From Verrucomicrobiota bacterium (lineage in GTDB: Bacteria; Verrucomicrobiota; Verrucomicrobiia; Limisphaerales; UBA8199), in contig JAAYVL010000122.1 in assembly GCA_012517205.1 (NCBI GenBank), forward strand, positions 10,729 through 74,728: 64,000 nt of DNA, in the 5' to 3' direction. This document shows positions 9,232 to 57,037 of this stretch, piece after piece. Each line of letters begins with the position of its first letter. Within the stretch, counting starts at the first letter, position 1. Below the pieces are notes generated by a model that saw only the letters and a list, made by a program, of their open reading frames with translations, was not told the DNA's origin and made no database searches. Position numbers and translations under genes: made by a program.

Positions 9232-10466
9232 ATCGGAAACAGCTTCTTATCCTATTGGTGTTGGTGGTGGTGGTGGGCGCGGCCGGCCTGGTCGTGTACC
9301 AGCGGAACCAGAGTTCATGGCAGGGCGGCGGGCGCGAGGGCGACTCCCGCAAGCTCCTGGGGGAACTGCCGGTCAATGATGTCGCGGCTATCCTGATCCA
9401 GCGCGGCACGAACCAGTTGGACCTGGTCCGCATTGACAACCGCTGGCGGGTGAAGCAGCGCGACGATTACCCGGCCAACTTTTCCGAGATCAGCAGTTTC
9501 CTGCTCAAGGCCGCCGACCTGAAGGCGGCGCAGACGGAGGAAATCGGCCCTTCGCAATTAGGGCGCTACCAATTGCTTCCCCCGGGGCCGGAAACCAACA
9601 CGGCCGTGCGGGTGGAACTGCGCGGTCAGGACGGCAAGCCGATTAAATCGCTCTTGCTGGGCAAATCGCACATGCGCAAAGCGGCGGGCCGCGCCTCGCC
9701 GATGGGCGAGATGGAAGAGGATGAAGGCTGGCCGGATGGCCGCTATGTCATGGTCGGCGGCCAGGTCAAAACGGTCGCGCTGGTCTCGGACCCGCTCAGC
9801 AATCTCGAACCCAAGCCGGAGCAATGGCTGAACAAGGACTTTTTCAAGGTCGAGAAAATCCGTTCGATTGCGGTCACCTACCCGGCCGCCACCAACTCCT
9901 GGAAGGCCAGCCGGGAAACCGAGAGCGCCAGCGAATGGAAGCTGGCGGAAGCCAAACCGGCGGAACAACTGGACCCCGCCAAGACCTCCGGCTTCGCCTA
10001 TGCGCTCAGTTCGCCCTCGTTCAACGACGTGCTGCCGGCGGATACCAAACCGGAACAGGTTGGCCTCAACCACCCGACCACGCTAACCCTCGAGACCTTC
10101 GACGACTTTACTTACAGCCTCAAGATCGGGCAGCGGACCAATGACAATCTTCCCGTCGTCCTGGCGGTCACGGCGCAGATTCCGAAGGAACGGACGCCCG
10201 GCAAGGAGGAGAAGGACGAAGACAAGGCCAGGCTGGACAAGGAATTCAAAGAGAAGCAGAAAAAGCTCGAAGACAAGCTCACCCAGGAGCAGGGCTACGG
10301 CAAACGGATTTACCTGGTTTCCTCCTGGACCCTGGACGCGTTGCTGAAGGAACGCCACCAGCTCCTGCTCGAGAAGAAAGAAGAGCCCGCGGGAGAAGAG
10401 AAGCCCGCAGCACCGCCCACCAAGCAGGCCGAGGACCTGATGGAGCCTGCGGTGGAGCCCAAGTAG
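9228..10466 (+). CDS. DUF4340-like membrane-anchored protein
   Basis: The start was chosen at the ATG that forms an ATGA overlap with the upstream stop (MNRKQLLILLVLVVVVGAAGLVVY); the longer track ORF from 9141 is unlikely. The conserved fourth position after gldA/F/G-type genes is typical of DUF4340, a family call made from memory. Confidence 0.55.
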   Translation: MNRKQLLILLVLVVVVGAAGLVVYQRNQSSWQGGGREGDSRKLLGELPVNDVAAILIQRGTNQLDLVRIDNRWRVKQRDDYPANFSEISSFLLKAADLKAAQTEEIGPSQLGRYQLLPPGPETNTAVRVELRGQDGKPIKSLLLGKSHMRKAAGRASPMGEMEEDEGWPDGRYVMVGGQVKTVALVSDPLSNLEPKPEQWLNKDFFKVEKIRSIAVTYPAATNSWKASRETESASEWKLAEAKPAEQLDPAKTSGFAYALSSPSFNDVLPADTKPEQVGLNHPTTLTLETFDDFTYSLKIGQRTNDNLPVVLAVTAQIPKERTPGKEEKDEDKARLDKEFKEKQKKLEDKLTQEQGYGKRIYLVSSWTLDALLKERHQLLLEKKEEPAGEEKPAAPPTKQAEDLMEPAVEPK

Positions 10467-14572: not shown

Positions 14573-14640
14573 CTCGGCCCGCCTCCGTTTGACGCAGGTT
14601 CAACTGGGAGCCAATTCAGGCTTCAGCCTCGCGGTCGAAC

Positions 14641-14657
14641 TGTGCCAATTTGGCACA
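14641..14657. repeat. 17-bp perfect palindrome TGTGCCAATTTGGCACA (left end of composite repeat element)
   Basis: Read directly. Together with its flanks (14635-14659) it is the inverted copy of 15068-15092, with 24 of 25 nt matching. Confidence 0.8.
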
Positions 14658-14719
14658 CCGATCACCTCATAAAACAACTGGCGTCCATACCAATCTGGGC
14701 CAAGCATTAACGCCTCAGA

Positions 14720-14738
14720 GTGTCCAATTATTGGACAC
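14720..14738. repeat. 19-bp perfect palindrome GTGTCCAATTATTGGACAC
   Basis: Read directly. The 17-bp core TGTCCAATTATTGGACA recurs at 34742-34758. Both lie ~90-105 nt upstream of a hairpin repeat. Confidence 0.8.
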
Positions 14739-14841
14739 CCCAAGGGGTGCCTCGTCAAATAGGTACTGTCCCAGCTCAACCGGCCCAATCTCCAACCACC
14801 TCAATTCCCGCCATTCCCAGCTCATTTCCAGCTAATAAATA

Positions 14842-14940
14842 GCCGTGTACAAGGGGTGTACAAGGGATGCCCACCGGATGTTCATCAGATTTTCCGATGT
14901 TCACCCGGTGGGCATCCCTTGTACACCCCTTGTACACGGC
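14842..14940. repeat. Hairpin repeat copy 1: perfect 36-bp inverted arms around a 27-nt loop
   Basis: GCCGTGTACAAGGGGTGTACAAGGGATGCCCACCGG ... CCGGTGGGCATCCCTTGTACACCCCTTGTACACGGC. Each arm contains a tandem 11-nt unit GTGTACAAGGG x2. Confidence 0.9.
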
Positions 14941-15069
14941 CATTTAGTAGGGGGAAAGGGTGGGGATGGACGGAAATGAGGATGTTCGTAAGGGATTCGC
15001 GGGCAGAGATGGAGGAGGCGAAATGGTTTCTCCATAGGGTGCATTTGAGGGCTGCCTTTGGAGTTGAGG

Positions 15070-15086
15070 TGTGCCAAATTGGCACA
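15070..15086. repeat. 17-bp perfect palindrome TGTGCCAAATTGGCACA (right end of composite repeat element)
   Basis: Read directly. It is the reverse complement of the 14641-14657 site, flanks included. Confidence 0.8.
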
Positions 15087-15260
15087 GTTTGAGAGCCGGT
15101 TGGAAGGGGGTGATGGCATGGAGGTTCCCGGCGAGATTTGGGGCGGGTAAAGCCGGTTGGGAACTGGCGGTTGAGGGGCAGCCACGCGGTGCGTCCGCCG
15201 GTTTATCCGCCCGTGGTCCCGGCTTTACTTTGGTTCGGTGGCCTCGTATTTCTTGGTTCA

Positions 15261-16853
15261 ATGCAAAGCGCCCTTCCGGAAGCGACTGCCGCTCCGCTTT
15301 ATTTCAACTTTGCCTCCGATGTGATTGATCGGTGGGCCCGGGAGCGACCGGATGCGCCGGCGCTTTGGTGTGTGGATGCCGCGACTGGCGAAGGCCGGAA
15401 ATTCAGCTTTCGGCAATTAGCGGAACTGAGTTGCCGGGTGGCCAACTGCCTGCGCGCCAATGGCGTCGGGCGCGGCGACCGCGTTCTGCTGATGCTGCCG
15501 CGCGTGCCGCAATGGTGGATTGCCATGCTGGGGCTTATCCGGTTGGGGGCGGTGCCCGTGCCCGCCACGCTGCTGCTGACGGCGCGCGACGTGGCTTATC
15601 GGCTGGGCAGCGCACGCATCCGCGCGGCGATCACCAGCCTGGACGGAGTGGGCAAGGTGGGCGGCTTTGAGGGGGTGCGCTTGCTGGTCGGCGGCCAGCG
15701 CGCGGGCTGGGCGGATTTCGATGACGGCGTCCGCCAGGCCAGCCCGAAGTTCCGCGCCGAACCGACCCGCAGCGACGATCCCGGGATTATCTACTTCACC
15801 AGCGCGACGACGGGCGACCCCAAGATGGTGCTGCACACGCAGGCCAGCTACGGACTCGGCCACCGGGCAACCGGCGAATTGTGGCTGGACCTGAAGCCGG
15901 ACGACCTCCATTGGAATCTGTCCGACCTGGGCTGGGGCAAGGCCGCGTGGTCAAGTTTCTACGGTCCGTGGCACATGGGCGCCTGCGTCTTTGCGCTGGA
16001 CACCCCCGGAAAGTTCGATCCGGTGTTGACGCTCGACACGCTGGCCGCGTTTCCCATTACCACCTGGTGCGCGCCGCCGACGGCGCTGCGGCTCATCGTT
16101 CGGCAGGATTTGTCTCGCTGGCGTTTCCCGCACCTGCGGCATTGCGTCACCGCCGGCGAGCCACTCAACCCGGAAGTGCTCAATCGCTGGCGCGAAGCGA
16201 CCGGCCTGACTCTCTACGAAGCCTACGGACAGACGGAAACGGTGGTTCTGATTGGCAACTTTCGTTCGCTGGGCCATCCCGTGCGGCCGGGTTCGATGGG
16301 CAAGGCCACGCCGGGATATAGCGTGGCGCTGCTCGATGAGCATCTGCGGGAAGTGCCGGATGGCAAGGAGGGCGAGGTGGCGGTCCGGGTCAAACCGCAT
16401 CGCCCGGCGGGGCTGTTCAGCGCGTATTGGCTCAGCCCGCGGGAAATGGCGGCGCAGTTCCAGGGCGACTGGTATCTGACCGGCGACCGGGCCACGCGCG
16501 ACGCCGACGGCTATTTCTGGTTTATCGGGCGCAAGGATGATGTGATCAAAAGTTCCGGTTATCGCATCGGGCCCTTTGAAGTGGAAAGCGCGCTGCTGGA
16601 GCATCCGGCGGTGCTGGAGGCCGCGGTCGTAGGGCAGCCGGATGCGCTGCGCGGGCAGATCGTCAAGGCCTACGTGGTGTTGCGGCCAGGCATGGAGGGC
16701 AGCCCGGAAGTCAAGGCCGAGCTCCAGACCCATTGCAAAAGCCTGGTGGCGGCGTACAAGTACCCGCGGGAGATCGTGTTTGTGCGGGAGCTGCCCAAGA
16801 CCACCAGCGGCAAGACCCGGCGGGTGGAGCTCCGGCAAATCACTCCCGTTTGA
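15261..16853 (+). CDS. AMP-forming acyl-CoA synthetase (medium-chain acyl-CoA ligase-like)
   Basis: AMP-binding motifs YFTSATTGDPK, YGQTE, YLTGDRATRDADGYFWFIGRKDDVIKSSGYRIGPFEVE and PKTTSGKTRR. The start was set at MQSALPE (15261), because the track start 15138 runs into the repeat region. Confidence 0.8.
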   Translation: MQSALPEATAAPLYFNFASDVIDRWARERPDAPALWCVDAATGEGRKFSFRQLAELSCRVANCLRANGVGRGDRVLLMLPRVPQWWIAMLGLIRLGAVPVPATLLLTARDVAYRLGSARIRAAITSLDGVGKVGGFEGVRLLVGGQRAGWADFDDGVRQASPKFRAEPTRSDDPGIIYFTSATTGDPKMVLHTQASYGLGHRATGELWLDLKPDDLHWNLSDLGWGKAAWSSFYGPWHMGACVFALDTPGKFDPVLTLDTLAAFPITTWCAPPTALRLIVRQDLSRWRFPHLRHCVTAGEPLNPEVLNRWREATGLTLYEAYGQTETVVLIGNFRSLGHPVRPGSMGKATPGYSVALLDEHLREVPDGKEGEVAVRVKPHRPAGLFSAYWLSPREMAAQFQGDWYLTGDRATRDADGYFWFIGRKDDVIKSSGYRIGPFEVESALLEHPAVLEAAVVGQPDALRGQIVKAYVVLRPGMEGSPEVKAELQTHCKSLVAAYKYPREIVFVRELPKTTSGKTRRVELRQITPV

Positions 16854-34663: not shown

Positions 34664-34741
34664 CCACCCCAGCGCAACTCGCTGGGAGCGAGCAGGAGCA
34701 CGACAAAGCACCGATCTTGGCCTTTTTAAGCCACGCCGGAC

Positions 34742-34758
34742 TGTCCAATTATTGGACA
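34742..34758. repeat. 17-bp perfect palindrome TGTCCAATTATTGGACA (second occurrence)
   Basis: Read directly. It lies 78 nt after the operon stop and 90 nt before hairpin copy 2. Confidence 0.8.
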
Positions 34759-34847
34759 CTTTCCGCTTTCCAACTTCATAACCCACGTCGAGCACCGGTT
34801 TCGACTTAACTTCAATCATTCCACCATCATCCATAGCAGCCTCCTGC

Positions 34848-34944
34848 CCGTGTACAAGGGGTGTACAACGGATGCTCATCGGGATTACATCGGTTTTTCT
34901 GTTGTTCATCCGGTGAGCATCCGATGTACACCCCTTGTACACGG
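34848..34944. repeat. Hairpin repeat copy 2
   Basis: CCGTGTACAAGGGGTGTACAACGGATGCTCATCGG ... CCGGTGAGCATCCGATGTACACCCCTTGTACACGG. Relative to copy 1, two substitutions are present in both arms (compensated). There is also one mismatch and one G-T pair. Confidence 0.9.
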
Positions 34945-35129
34945 CGTCTTGGGAGGGTGGCAGGACGCCATTTGGGGGTTGCGGTTGGCGGGGGATTGCG
35001 GGATGGGGTTTCGCGCTGTTCGCCGAGTTGAGGGTGTGTTTCGGCAAGCCGGTTTGTCAGCTCAGATTGAGAGGCGCGGCCATCAGCGCGTCCTTGCTTC
35101 CTCCCCGCCGGAATTGCTAATCTTCCAGC

Positions 35130-44414: not shown

Positions 44415-44701
44415 CCGTGCCTCAGTTTCAGGTTTTGCGTCCGGCGTTTCAAGCTGCAAGTTGCGGAGTTATCCTCCTTTTCGGTTCGTGACGAACTGCT
44501 GCGGTTGGAGGAACTTCAGGGCGATGGCGGATCGCCGGTTCTGTGATTAGACCCGTTTTGTCAGCGACGCTGACTTATCTGTGGTGGCCCATATCACCCG
44601 TTTTGGAGGCGGGTTCGAGAGCCGGGGCCGGTAACAGTTTGCGTGGCTTGCCGCCTGGCCTGTAATTGCGCTGATTGCGGGCCGGTGTGCGAAAAGTAAA
44701 A

Positions 44702-47629
44702 TTAACTCAGTCCCCCCAATCCGCTGCAGGTACAGATCAGGTTGCGGTCGCCGTGGACATTATCTATGCGGCCGACGGCGGGCCAGAACTTGTGGCCATA
44801 CAGCCACTTGGCGGGGAAAGCGGCTTGCTGGCGGGAGTAGGAATGATCCCATGATTCCACCGCGAGCTGATCGGCAGTGTGAGGGGCGTTCTTTAGCGGA
44901 TTGTTATGTTTGTCGGACTGGCCGGATTGGATGGCGGTGATTTCGGCGTGAATATGGATCAGGGCGTCGCAGAAACGATCGAGCTCTTCCTTGGACTCGC
45001 TTTCAGTGGGTTCGACCATCATTGTGCCGGGCACGGGCCAGGAGATCGTCGGGGCGTGGAACCCGTAATCCATTAGCCGCTTGGCGACATCCTCGACGGT
45101 GACGTCCTTGAACTGGCGCAGGTCAAGGATGCATTCATGGGCGACGAGGCTGGCGGGGCCGCGATAGAGAATGGGGAAGTAGTTTTGCAGGCGCCGGGCG
45201 ATATAATTGGCGTTAAGGATGGCGTATTGGGTCGCCTCGGTCAGCCCGGCCCCACCCATCGCGGCAATATAGACCCACGGGATTACGAGGACGCTGGCGC
45301 TGCCCCAGGGCGCGGCAGCTACGGCGCCGATCGGGTTTTCGCCGCCGAGATTGACGACCCCGTGCCCCGGCAGGAACTCCACTAAATGCTCAGCCACCCC
45401 GATGGGCCCCATGCCCGGACCGCCGCCGCCATGAGGAATGGCGAAGGTTTTATGCAGATTCAAGTGGCAAACGTCGGCCCCGATATCGCCGGGGCGGCAA
45501 AGGCCAACCTGGGCGTTGAGGTTGGCCCCGTCCATATAGACCTGGCCGCCATGGGCGTGGATGATTTCGCAGATCTCTCGGATGGCGGGCTCAAATACGC
45601 CATGCGTCGAGGGATAGGTCACCATTACCGCTGCCAGGTTGGCCTGGTGCGCTTCGGCTTTGGCCCGCAGGTCGGCGAGGTCAATGTTGCCTTCGTGGTC
45701 GCAAGCCACCGCTACGACCTTTAGCCCGGCCATGACGGCACTGGCGGGGTTGGTGCCGTGGGCTGATGTCGGAATGAGGCAGATGTTGCGGTGACCTTCA
45801 CCGCGGCTGGCATGCCAGGCGCGGATGACAAGCAAGCCGGTATATTCACCTTGCGACCCTGCATTGGGCTGCAAGGAAATCCCGGCAAAGCCGGTGATCG
45901 CGCCCAGCCATTCCTCCAATTGTTGGAACAGCACTTGCCAGCCTCGGGTTTGGCGCAACGGTGCAAATGGGTGCAGGCGCGTCAGCTCGGGCCAGGTAAG
46001 CGGCAACATCTCGACGGCGGCATTCAGCTTCATGGTGCAGGAGCCGAGCGGAATCATGGAAGTCGTCAGTGAAAGGTCGCGCGCTTCCAGTCGCTTGAGG
46101 TAGCGCATCATTTCGGTTTCCGAGTGATAGCGGTTGAAGACCGGATGGGTCAGATAGGAAGACGTGCGCGCAAAAGGGACAGGATAGGCAACTTCGGCTT
46201 CCGCGACCAGGTTCGTCAGTTCGAAAGCGGGGGTCTGGCCGTCATGAAAAACCCGGATAATCCCAGCCAGGTCCTGCTCGGTGGTTGTCTCATCCAGCGA
46301 GATGCCGAGGGTATGCTCATCTATAAACCGGAAGTTCATGCCCTGGCTTTCAGCGGCTTTGAGCAGGTCGGCTGCCTTCTTTTGGCCGAGCGCAATGCGG
46401 AGAGTGTCGAAGAATAAACCCGGGCCGACCTCGTAGCCAAGCCGCTCCAGGCTGCGCGCCAGAACAACCGTGCGCTGATGGATGCGCTGTGCAATTTGCC
46501 GCAATCCAGCCGGCCCATGATAACAGGCATACATGGCGGCCATGCAGGCCGGCAGTGCCTGCGCGGTGCAAATATTGCTGGTGGCCTTCTCGCGCCGGAT
46601 GTGCTGCTCGCGGGTTTGCAGGGCGAGGCGCAGGGCGGGACGGCCTCGTGCGTCCTTCGAGACGCCGACAATACGCCCCGGCAGGAGGCGTTTGAAAGCG
46701 TCGCGCGTCGCAAAGTAAGCCGCATGCGGCCCGCCATAGCCAAGTGGCACGCCCAGTCGCTGCGTGCTGCCCAAGGCTATATCGGCCCCGAATTCGCCCG
46801 GCGGCCGGAGCAGGGTTAGGCTCAGCAGGTCGGCGGCCACGGCGACCAGCGCTCCCGCGGCATGAGCCTGTTCGATAAAAGTGGAGTAATCTACAACCTC
46901 ACCCCAGGTATTCGGATACTGCACCAGAGCACCAAAGACCTGGTCATGGAATTGAAACGCACGGTGATCTCCAGTTTCAACCCGGAGAGCCAGGGCGTCA
47001 GCGCGGGTCTTTACCACCTCAATGGTTTGAGGATGGCACTCTGCGGAGACAAAGAAGACGCTCCGCGCCGGCTTGAGCGAGTGGCACAGGGTCATGGCTT
47101 CCGCAGCGGCGGTGGCCTCATCGAGCAGCGAAGCATTGGCCACTTCCAACCCGGTGAGGTCGGTTACCATCGTTTGGAAGTTGAGCAAAGCCTCAAGGCG
47201 TCCCTGTGCGATTTCAGCTTGGTAGGGGGTGTACGGCGTGTACCAGCCAGGGTTCTCCAACAGGTTGCGTTGAATAACGGCGGGCACGTGGCAATCGTAG
47301 TAGCCCATGCCAATATACGAACGGAAGATCTGGTTCTGCGCGGCGATTTTCTTTAAAGCCGCGAGCACGTCAGGCTCGCTGCGGGCGGGCGGGAGTTGAA
47401 GCGGTTGCCGCAGACGTATGGCCGGAGGCACTGCGTCGTCAATCAGTGCCGCGAGACTCGTATAGCCCAGCAGGCGGAGCATTTCTTCGGCCTCGCTCGC
47501 GCGCGGGCCAATGTGGCGGTGCCAAAACCGATCTGCCGGCGGAGGCAGATGGGCATTTACAGGGCCCGCGGTCACGCTGGCCGGGGACGAATTGTTCCGA
47601 TCACAGCTTGCAGGTTCGATAACAGACAT
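44702..47629 (-). CDS. gcvP: Glycine dehydrogenase (decarboxylating), single-chain P protein
   Basis: The 975-aa ORF carries conserved P-protein segments ([44 protein letters not shown]-like [24 protein letters not shown]). Confidence 0.9.
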
Positions 47630-56057: not shown

Positions 56058-56587
56058 AGCCAAGCATGTTCCGGGGTTTTTATCTGCGCGAGCAAAAAAG
56101 CGCAAGGTTGCAGCGCGGAGCCCACCGGGGGAAATCGAACTGTGCTTCTATTGCAGGGTGACGCGGCGAATTAACCTCCGATCTTAGCCGAAACAATTTA
56201 GATTTAACTCCAATTCGATCTCACAGAACGCGCAAGTTTCTGGTTTTACAGGCGAAAAACATTCGGAAACCAGTGGCCAGACCGGTGAATTCGTGAGCCA
56301 AACGGCTCGTTGTGGCTATCCGCTGGCCTGTCAGGCCTGCTTCGGTCCTGGTGGAACGAAGGGATAAGGTTGAACTACGCAACGCCAACGTTTCAGATAA
56401 CGTATTCGCGAAGCCAAAAGCCCTTCGAACACTCGCTTGCCCTTGAAAAGCCGCTTTTTGCCAGCCCTGACTTCATAACCGGCTGCTTTTACAGAACTTA
56501 GTAATTACCTTACCGTCCTCTCGCGTCGTTTTGGCCTTTCCAAGCATCCGGATTCATTATCCATATCCCTTGGATTTAGGCTATTCC

Positions 56588-56692
56588 TACGCCGTGTACA
56601 AGGGGTGTACAAGGGATGCTCACCGGGAGTCCATGGGATTTTAGCTGGTGCATCCGATGGGCATCCCTTGTACACCCCTTGTACACGGCGTA
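56588..56692. repeat. Hairpin repeat copy 3 (core), embedded in a longer imperfect hairpin 56563-56717
   Basis: TACGCCGTGTACAAGGGGTGTACAAGGGATGCTCACCGG ... CCGATGGGCATCCCTTGTACACCCCTTGTACACGGCGTA. Outer arms ATATCCCTTGGATTTA (56563-56578) and TAAATCCAAGGGATGT (56702-56717) also pair. Confidence 0.9.
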
Positions 56693-57037
56693 GAGGCAGG
56701 GTAAATCCAAGGGATGTCCAAGGCAGGCTTCAACCGAAACGAGTTGGGTTCCGATTCTATTTCACTCTTCCCAATGTGCGTAAGTCATTGATCTTACAGG
56801 CAAAAGACGTTTGGGATTCAGCAGCTATGCCGCTGATTTCGCTAAACAAGGGATCGTTGGGGTTATGACCAGGGCGCTCGGGACCTCCCGGGCTCCGATA
56901 GAACGCGGGCGGGCGGTTGAACCACCTCTCTAAATCGTTTCGGTTTAGCCACTCAGGCAGGAAGCGTGGAGGGCGCGCAAGGCAAAACAAAGGTTGAATT
57001 AGCGGGCGTTCGCGGTGAATAATGGGCTATACGGATT

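Follow-up and report, generated by a model that had tools for sequence, protein, structure and literature searches.

Three hairpin repeats of about 100 nt in a stretch of Verrucomicrobiota DNA prove to be the palindromic cores of mobile insertions that carry no genes. The stretch, called the window here, is 64,000 nt long (GenBank assembly GCA_012517205.1, contig JAAYVL010000122.1, positions 10,729 to 74,728; coordinates below are counted from its first base). The cores lie at 14843-14939 (copy 1), 34848-34944 (copy 2) and 56592-56688 (copy 3), where an earlier note made from the sequence alone had placed three hairpin copies; neither they nor the insertions around them are assigned to a strand. 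They belong to a large and lineage-specific family with at least 80 intergenic sites, and at least two types of carrier element have DDE-style footprints. The core is quite probably a conserved module of gene-less, non-autonomous insertions of 0.4-0.8 kb, resembling miniature inverted-repeat transposable elements (MITEs), in an uncultured Verrucomicrobiota lineage.

As a stretch of chromosome the window is ordinary, with genes for FtsK, an acyl-CoA synthetase, adenine deaminase and an Oxidored_FMN enzyme. The three cores occupy its three longest intergenic regions, whose length the insertions explain.

Insertions carrying the three cores

Copy 1 is carried by an insertion of about 600 nt (14590-15210, ends approximate) that splits the Oxidored_FMN gene from an AMP-binding (acyl-CoA synthetase) gene. 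In the relative L064 (85% identical, compare 9990-10010), the stop codon of the first gene overlaps the start codon of the second, as ATGA; in the window the two genes are about 600 nt apart. The insertion fell a few codons into the AMP-binding gene (15189-16853, + strand, 554 aa). Its old first codons remain after the upstream stop codon, and its start has been displaced to a new GTG at 15189, with a new N-terminus (MRPPVYPPVVP) at the insertion edge. Because remnant codons are left on one side and a new start on the other, this locus represents an insertion in the window rather than a deletion in the relative. For the host, the consequence was the splitting of a translationally coupled gene pair and a new start for the downstream gene. 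Inward of the mapped ends is a perfect 22-nt inverted repeat, with its left arm (AACTGTGCCAATTTGGCACACC) at 14638-14659 on the + strand and its right arm at 15068-15089 on the - strand.

Copy 2 lies upstream of ftsK, in an intergenic region of 466 nt that measures 66 nt in L058, the closest relative found at this gene (FtsK 89% identical). The gene order, a gltD-like gene followed by ftsK, is kept; the ftsK-proximal 40 nt align, and the window has about 420 nt extra (34668-35091, ends approximate). Five further relatives also lack this segment, and the core was not found in any of six 22-kb ftsK loci from relatives. Terminal inverted repeats were looked for in the copy 2 insertion, and none were found.

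The element carrying copy 3 adjoins the adenine deaminase gene and could be delimited at both ends. It is about 758 nt long (56187-56944), with 19-nt terminal inverted repeats at 56187-56205 (+ strand, GCCGAAACAATTTAGATTT; family consensus GCCGGAACGATTCAGATTT) and 56926-56944 (- strand), and is flanked by TTA at 56184-56186 and 56945-56947. No credible open reading frame (ORF) was found in 56106-57037, and the arms are non-coding in all copies aligned. When the 55.9-57.2 kb portion of the window was compared with 62 other core sites, coverage rose from 1 to 12-18 sites at about 56183 and fell from 15-20 to 0 at about 56950; these sharp boundaries are common to 17-20 other sites, there are at least 17 full-length relatives, and between 17 and 38 of the 62 share flanks with copy 3. 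The consensus GCCGGAACGATTCAGATTT is found at both ends in eight sites. Identical triplets flank four of seven copy-3-type elements as direct repeats, TTA/TTA twice (including the window) and TAA/TAA twice, and the TTA at the ends of the window element is probably a 3-bp target duplication. In the relative L177 (87% identical), the same three genes are present with 224 nt of intergenic sequence where the window has 980, and the insertion is absent; after removal of 56187-56947 (761 nt), the window aligns end to end with the L177 region, 251 nt against 247.

A second type of carrier is found in the metagenome-assembled genome (MAG) CAWGGD, where the core is part of a repeat 480 bp long; its terminal repeats are of 22 bp (GGCGCATCTCAACTTCTTGC), and duplications of 9 bp could be read in four copies. 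Terminal repeats are unrelated between different carriers. Because carriers that differ in their ends and in duplication length share one core, their transposases probably do not recognize the core itself. The possibility that whole insertions are palindromic was rejected, as only the terminal repeats match. No carrier without a core was found, in a data set biased towards cores.

In copy-3-type elements the center of the core is an asymmetric segment of 27 nt, found in both orientations with respect to the unequal arms, at five sites against two (e.g., L115 1291-2044 and L162 9122-9875, as compared with window 56187-56944). Active flipping was considered and rejected, as the orientation never differed in 29 pairs of the same site from different samples; the distribution suggests either rare inversion between the 35-bp arms or randomization at transposition. 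The 400-nt left arm of the element was also considered as a possible structured RNA, for which there is no support, with a covariation term of +0.59 from three sequences only.

Distribution and genomic context of the family

Where the earlier note had three copies, surveys of other genomes yielded far more. A one-genome-per-species scan with an 18-nt arm (596 Gb, in which about 17 chance matches to an 18-mer are expected) gave at least 53 loci; among the matches listed, 38 are from seven MAGs labeled Verrucomicrobiota or Verrucomicrobiae. Paired core copies, again among the matches listed, occur in at least seven MAGs with these labels and at least four labeled otherwise. Most of the single-arm matches in other phyla can be put down to the chance expectation, and those in Oscillospiraceae, Rhodanobacteraceae, and Cyclobacteriaceae were set aside on this ground. 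A metagenome scan with a 26-nt arm gave at least 109 loci (856 kb), with at least 106 paired elements at 83 or more distinct sites; the strain of the window is represented in 261 blocks of this collection. The core is absent from 143 kb of related sequence (the six ftsK loci plus L177), as compared to three cores in the 64-kb window.

Eighty-eight distinct sites had adequate flanks for further analysis. Thirty-nine are between tandem genes, 22 between divergent and 13 between convergent pairs, so far as gene pairs were assigned, with no preference for promoters or terminators. Only three of the 88 cores fall within a predicted ORF, and the median intergenic length at core sites is 797 nt. The neighbors are ordinary metabolic genes; par genes are not present. 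Near-flank sequence is shared with other sites on both sides in 47 cases, on one side only in 32, and on neither side in nine.

The observation that all three window copies are intergenic and lack a T-tract held up, with no intrinsic-terminator pattern near the cores. No sigma-70 pattern was found near the copy 1 or copy 2 core either, and near copy 3 there is a single weak promoter-like match about 300 nt off the core. Nor has the motif turned out to be a recognized one: Rfam has no real match at gathering or permissive thresholds, only generic miRNA-hairpin matches far below threshold; viral, phage, and plasmid collections have no match to the core; and the full-text literature has none to the exact core sequence.

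Structure of the core

The outer 20 nt of the arm (CCGTGTACAAGGGGTGTACA) were described earlier as identical in all six window arms, and this is so: the 20-mer has six exact matches in the window, forming three inverted pairs, each 77 nt apart, and no match with up to three mismatches in 100 dinucleotide-preserving shuffles. The three 97-mers, taken as single-stranded DNA, have predicted folding energies of -50.2, -41.5, and -40.6 kcal/mol (z-scores -17, -13, and -11), which makes them very stable hairpins; a single arm folded by itself is of unremarkable stability (z = -1.2). The stem of copy 1 does pair perfectly, over 35 bp instead of the 36 first reported. In copies 1 and 3, the palindrome extends into flanks specific to each copy.

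Each arm is built of four phased 11-nt units, not the two originally counted, with the consensus R-TG-YW-CA-MS-GG; T2, G3, C6, A7, G10, and G11 are conserved in all units. Unit identities are specific to position: unit 1 (outermost) is GTGTACAAGGG, unit 2 GTGTACA(AG/CC)GG, and unit 3 RTGCTCACCGG, while unit 4 is variable. The layout is 2+44+5+44+2 = 97 nt, with ends reading GCCGTG...CACGGC, and the phasing places all units on one face of the helix. Among 151 collected copies, 140 are 97 nt long, eight are 108 nt, and one is 86 nt, so that core length is quantized in whole units of 11 nt. Units 1 and 2 of each arm together form a 19-bp dyad, GTGTACA-N5-TGTACA(C/A). Copy 3 is a member of the commonest subfamily, in which the center is conserved but not palindromic (GAGTCCATRGG-ATTTT-AGCTGGTACAC; GAGTCCATGGG-ATTTT-AGCTGGTGCAT in copy 3 itself) and unit 3 has fixed mismatches. 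The unit variants in the two arms of one copy frequently differ. The core boundary shows no direct target duplication; some copies have inverted-repeat flanks instead.

A second, smaller palindrome accompanies many cores. In the window it is found at 14720-14738 (GTGTCCAATTATTGGACAC, 19 bp, 105 nt from core 1) and, with one base changed, at 34741-34759 (CTGTCCAATTATTGGACAC, 89 nt from core 2), where the inner 17 bp (TGTCCAATTATTGGACA) are a perfect palindrome; neither is assigned to a strand. A 17-19-bp palindrome of this type (GTGTCCAATWAWTGGACAC) is present 38-129 nt to one side of the core in 22 of 45 copies, among them copies 1 and 2 and those of the CAWGGD family, and these copies also share short blocks of sequence. 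Within the window, GTGTCCAATWAWTGGACAC and the related GTGCCAAATTGGCAC are confined to the copy 1 and copy 2 insertions. The companion (GTGTCCAAT-T-ATTGGACAC) and the 19-bp dyad of the arms have the same length and the same outer bases (GTGT.CA...TG.ACAC).

Pairing or sequence as the conserved property

From differences between copies 1 and 2, it had been proposed that arm substitutions are compensated. The change in copy 2 (AACGG/CCGAT) is only partially so, with one position unpaired in the predicted fold, and compensation is not a property of the family. In an alignment of 31 distinct copies, 85.0% of cells are paired, compared to 84.5% when the 3' partners are shuffled, and 84 of 500 shuffles were as good; with 116 distinct copies the values are 84.5% and 86.4%, and all 500 shuffles were at least as good. 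Arm differences in the larger alignment are therefore not compensatory, and the cores are palindromic because similar units are arranged as inverted arrays.

Sequence conservation was examined in two pairs of orthologous cores from different species (L018/L035 and L029/L049), with flanking proteins 84-94% identical. The outer 48 nt have four differences in each pair (92% identity, a value inflated by ascertainment with exact arms, although arms not used for detection still have only one mismatch in 18). The inner part of the core is 62-75% identical, and the adjoining flanks 57-67%. In the window, the six outer arms are identical, while sequence in the carrier arms has diverged between copies 1 and 2 past easy alignment. 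Taken together, the lack of covariation, the position-specific units, the asymmetric dominant center, the orthologous conservation of the outer arms, and the quantized length lead us to infer that the core is maintained as double-stranded sequence, and not as a base-paired RNA or single-stranded DNA hairpin. Constraint at this level would most simply indicate a putative double-stranded protein-binding site.

Search for a mobilizing enzyme

About 1.45 Mb of DNA close to cores, a biased and incomplete set, was searched for an autonomous partner whose ends match, and none was found. Arms split around a gene were not found there either, apart from contig ends and one disruption by an IS21 element; there were no extra pairs of terminal repeats and no recurring transposase among the neighbors of cores. 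Clustering of neighboring proteins yielded only abundant housekeeping paralogs (GHL10, DUF1559 pseudopilins, tRNA synthetases, response regulators). A DDE_Tnp_1 gene of IS4/IS5 type, downstream of the adenine deaminase gene in L177 (6123-6854), was considered and dismissed, having no ends that match the copy 3 element.

Searches by tblastn with RAYT (REP-associated tyrosine transposase), IS200, and IS608 queries gave no match. A follow-up with a Y1 transposase from the relative L059 found one locus with an IS200-type gene near a core, represented three times (L008 1543-1986, L114 8887-9327, and L157 5946-6386) at 0.9-1.1 kb from the core. The gene scores 66.5 bits with profile NF033573, and 16.8 with the RAYT model NF047646, for which the cut-off is 80. 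By score it is of IS200/IS605 type, and it is not flanked by cores; it was rejected as a RAYT partner. It adjoins a fragment resembling an extracytoplasmic function (ECF) sigma factor. Also beside it are 376-nt repeats in tandem and another REP-like repeat, CCGGCGCGCGGGCCTCNGGCCCGC, which has 21 matches in 10 loci and may be the proper partner of this gene. At L059 12600-13420, in a relative without cores, a Y1 gene just downstream of ftsK has inverted repeats about 100 nt long on either side (CCTGAAAGGATTGAATC...); these are absent from the window.

Possible origins and functions

Three explanations were offered in the earlier note: a structured RNA or REP/BIME-like element (repetitive extragenic palindrome/bacterial interspersed mosaic element), a symmetric protein-binding array, or the core of a non-autonomous mobile element. 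The last is supported by insertions absent from relatives, by at least 83 sites, and by terminal repeats and partly confirmed target duplications. A binding array is still plausible for the core itself, considering its conservation at the level of units and its constrained outer arms, but centromere or operator roles do not suit a dispersed element found in all intergenic contexts. Structured RNA is left with neither covariation nor an Rfam match, and the resemblance to REP/BIME extends to architecture but not to a GTAG/CGTC tag or a flanked RAYT.

If the core is a module of MITE-like insertions, DDE-type transposition supplied in trans would move the carriers, with terminal repeats and short direct duplications as its footprint. 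One dimeric DNA-binding protein might occupy the dyads of the arms and the companion palindrome, and could be the mobilizing enzyme, an accessory factor of the element, or a host protein; its binding would keep the outer arms nearly invariant while the center and flanks decay. A dimeric binder is proposed as the simplest account of the unit-level conservation, the quantized length, and the constraint at orthologous sites.

Several points weigh against this reading. A decaying MITE would not be expected to keep its outer arms conserved at static orthologous sites, and the binding protein is entirely hypothetical. The probable TTA duplication is based on four of seven copies, and at the empty site in L177 divergence is too great for the triplet to be confirmed; target duplications of copies 1 and 2 are not readable at the empty-site comparisons. 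The same core is found in carriers with probable 3-bp and with 9-bp duplications, and the search described above turned up no autonomous partner. With unique flanks on both sides at nine of 88 sites and on one side at 32, the core may also move or recombine alone.

On a more novel reading, the core would be a cassette of protein-binding sites that is portable and maintained by selection, made up of two 19-bp dyads, the inner phased units, and the companion palindrome. Several MITE families with different transposition chemistry (3-bp against 9-bp duplications) would have acquired it independently. We regard this as possible but unlikely. If it were true, MITEs would be connecting a single DNA-binding protein to some hundred sites on the chromosome, as a bacterial counterpart to the dispersal of transcription-factor sites by transposons, or as a new kind of dispersed architectural site.

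The core and the 19-bp palindrome might instead be a nucleoid-organizing or regulatory site of the host, scattered as a passenger by several unrelated MITEs. The 11-bp phasing on one helix face and the position-specific unit identities would be in keeping with this, as would the purifying constraint on the outer arms at orthologous sites, the occurrence of one core in carriers with different ends and duplication lengths, and the 19-bp dyad geometry that the companion shares. Position and orientation relative to genes are inconsistent, however; three cores in the 64-kb window against none in 143 kb of close relatives is unlike an essential host site; and no candidate protein was found. A host array is a rather improbable explanation.

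Somewhat less probable again is that the 97-nt palindrome is itself a minimal MITE, with 26-bp arms as its terminal repeats, and that the larger carriers are nested composites. The arms are of typical length for terminal repeats, the ends are the best-conserved part, and the size is strictly conserved; cores of one recent subfamily have different flanks (the 17-38 of 62 sites noted above share those of copy 3), and flanks are unique on both sides at nine of 88 sites. Against this, a direct target duplication is missing at the core boundary, and in some copies the flanks are inverted repeats instead. No core-less carrier was found, although the data set is biased towards cores, and none of the empty-site comparisons at three loci differs by 97 nt.

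A REPIN-like element, in which the arms would be REP-type hairpins and the doublet would be copied via single-stranded DNA by a single-copy HUH tyrosine transposase (RAYT/IS200-like), without target duplication, is more doubtful still. Its architecture matches, with two conserved inverted arms around a variable center, about 100 nt in length, extragenic, and in high copy number; TGTACA-N5-TGTACA is able to fold by itself; and there is no target duplication around the core as such. Cores are retained at orthologous positions with their arms conserved, as is described for REPINs, and REP dimers within longer palindromes are known (PMC3733652). The IS200-family Y1 gene at 0.9-1.1 kb from one core could be taken as a further hint, but it scores as IS200/IS605 rather than RAYT, is not flanked by cores, and has its own other repeats alongside. 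There is no GTAG or CGTC tag, the few GTAG in the flanks being on the wrong side, and a lone arm is not unusually stable (z = -1.2). The window copies arrived as units of 0.4-0.8 kb, and the copy 3 and CAWGGD carriers have terminal repeats and target duplications, that of copy 3 being probable.

Least probable, and very much so, is a function at the RNA level, with a transcribed hairpin acting as terminator, mRNA 3' stabilizer, or RNase target in the manner of REP/BIME and Correia elements: the stems are very stable, the copies are intergenic, and the copy 1 insertion separates two formerly coupled genes, but 116 copies show no covariation, the commonest subfamily has fixed mismatches and an asymmetric center, there is neither a T-tract nor an Rfam match, and 30% of sites are between divergent genes, where the core would not be in a 3' untranslated region. 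A partition centromere or operator array does not suit an element with at least 83 dispersed sites, ordinary metabolic neighbors, and no match in plasmid and phage collections.

Comparison with known repeat families

The family is new and its kind familiar, with MITE-like function and REPIN-like appearance. Bacterial MITEs (Correia/CREE of Neisseria, ERIC/IRU, RUP, Nezha) are ORF-less, high-copy, intergenic elements with terminal inverted repeats and short target duplications; their presence varies between relatives, and they can form long hairpins. The elements described here resemble them in all these respects: ORF-less, multi-copy, intergenic, variably present, hairpin-forming, and with terminal repeats and short duplications, although the duplications are only partly confirmed. 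They differ in the larger size of the carriers (420-770 nt), in having an internal 97-nt palindrome that is common to carriers with unrelated ends and kept at orthologous sites, and in that no cognate insertion sequence (IS) was found in the DNA searched.

The likeness to REP, BIME, and REPIN sequences is in the hairpin of about 100 nt, with two conserved inverted arms and a variable center, and in being extragenic, vertically persistent, and sometimes inside longer palindromes. REP sequences are defined by a conserved unpaired GTAG/CGTC tag adjoining a short stem-loop (PMC3733652). The present family has no such tag, and each of its arms consists of tandem units instead of a single short stem-loop; no copy-flanked RAYT was found near the cores, and copies arrive in elements with terminal repeats and partly confirmed duplications.

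The copy 3 element is similar to DDE elements of the IS5 family and PIF/Harbinger type in its terminal repeats of about 19-22 bp and its probable 3-bp duplication of TTA/TAA. It differs in that no transposase gene was found in the DNA searched, the assignment being from the footprint, and in that the CAWGGD sister family makes 9-bp duplications. Canonical Harbinger elements generate a 3-bp duplication, and are related to the IS5 groups IS427, IS1031, and ISL2 (PMC12730594).

Outside the mobile elements, the 11-bp phasing has a parallel in parC. This iteron centromere of plasmid R1 consists of two blocks of five 11-bp repeats bound by ParR. In the core, too, 11-bp repeats stand one helical turn apart in two blocks, which by analogy suggests that binding would be cooperative, along one face of the DNA; in contrast to parC, however, the blocks are inverted rather than direct, the cores are chromosomal, dispersed, and mobile at dozens of sites, par genes are not present, and plasmid and phage collections have no match. 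Eukaryotic Foldback (FB) transposons have long inverted arms of short tandem repeats, with the outermost units best conserved. The core is similar in both features, but only in architecture: FB elements are kilobases long as compared to 97 nt, belong to another domain of hosts, and have a known transposase.

These elements add a well-delimited, recently active, gene-less mobile family to a phylum in which such repeats have barely been described. What is unusual for MITEs is the phased 11-bp internal palindrome across carriers with different ends, along with outer arms conserved at orthologous sites. The elements also break short-read assemblies, and could be used as strain markers in digester and activated-sludge metagenomes.

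Additional observations at individual loci

Many other copies sit at contig ends. Contigs L174-L176 (position 1), from a strain with 97% identity, all break off inside the core, at a point about 558 nt upstream of the gene for adenine deaminase. At another locus (L026 1623-2285, compared with window 44460-44716), synteny with a related MAG, at 79% nucleotide identity over 5 kb, stops exactly at a core that the MAG has and the window lacks; with the one-sided flank sharing at 32 of 88 sites, this hints that cores may be rearrangement breakpoints. One core (L033 1264-3861) has been cut in its loop by an IS21-family element (IstA 497 aa, IstB 248 aa), the end of which has several short repeats.

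Two sets of related sequences were found in other contexts. Three Clostridia/Oscillospiraceae MAGs have same-strand pairs of GGGTGTACAAGGGGTGTACAAAAC-like sequences 1-2.4 kb apart (L001 5900/6919, L017 3003/5444, L025 1907/3521), in a conserved context adjoining plsY that differs from the Verrucomicrobiota one; the pairs resemble the two ends of a small integrated island and have no relation to the Verrucomicrobiota element. In a prophage-like region of a Phycisphaerae genome (L004 4290-4440), two short sites derived from the same half-site (e.g., GGTGTACAAACTTGTACACC) are 87 nt apart between two genes, and look like operators.

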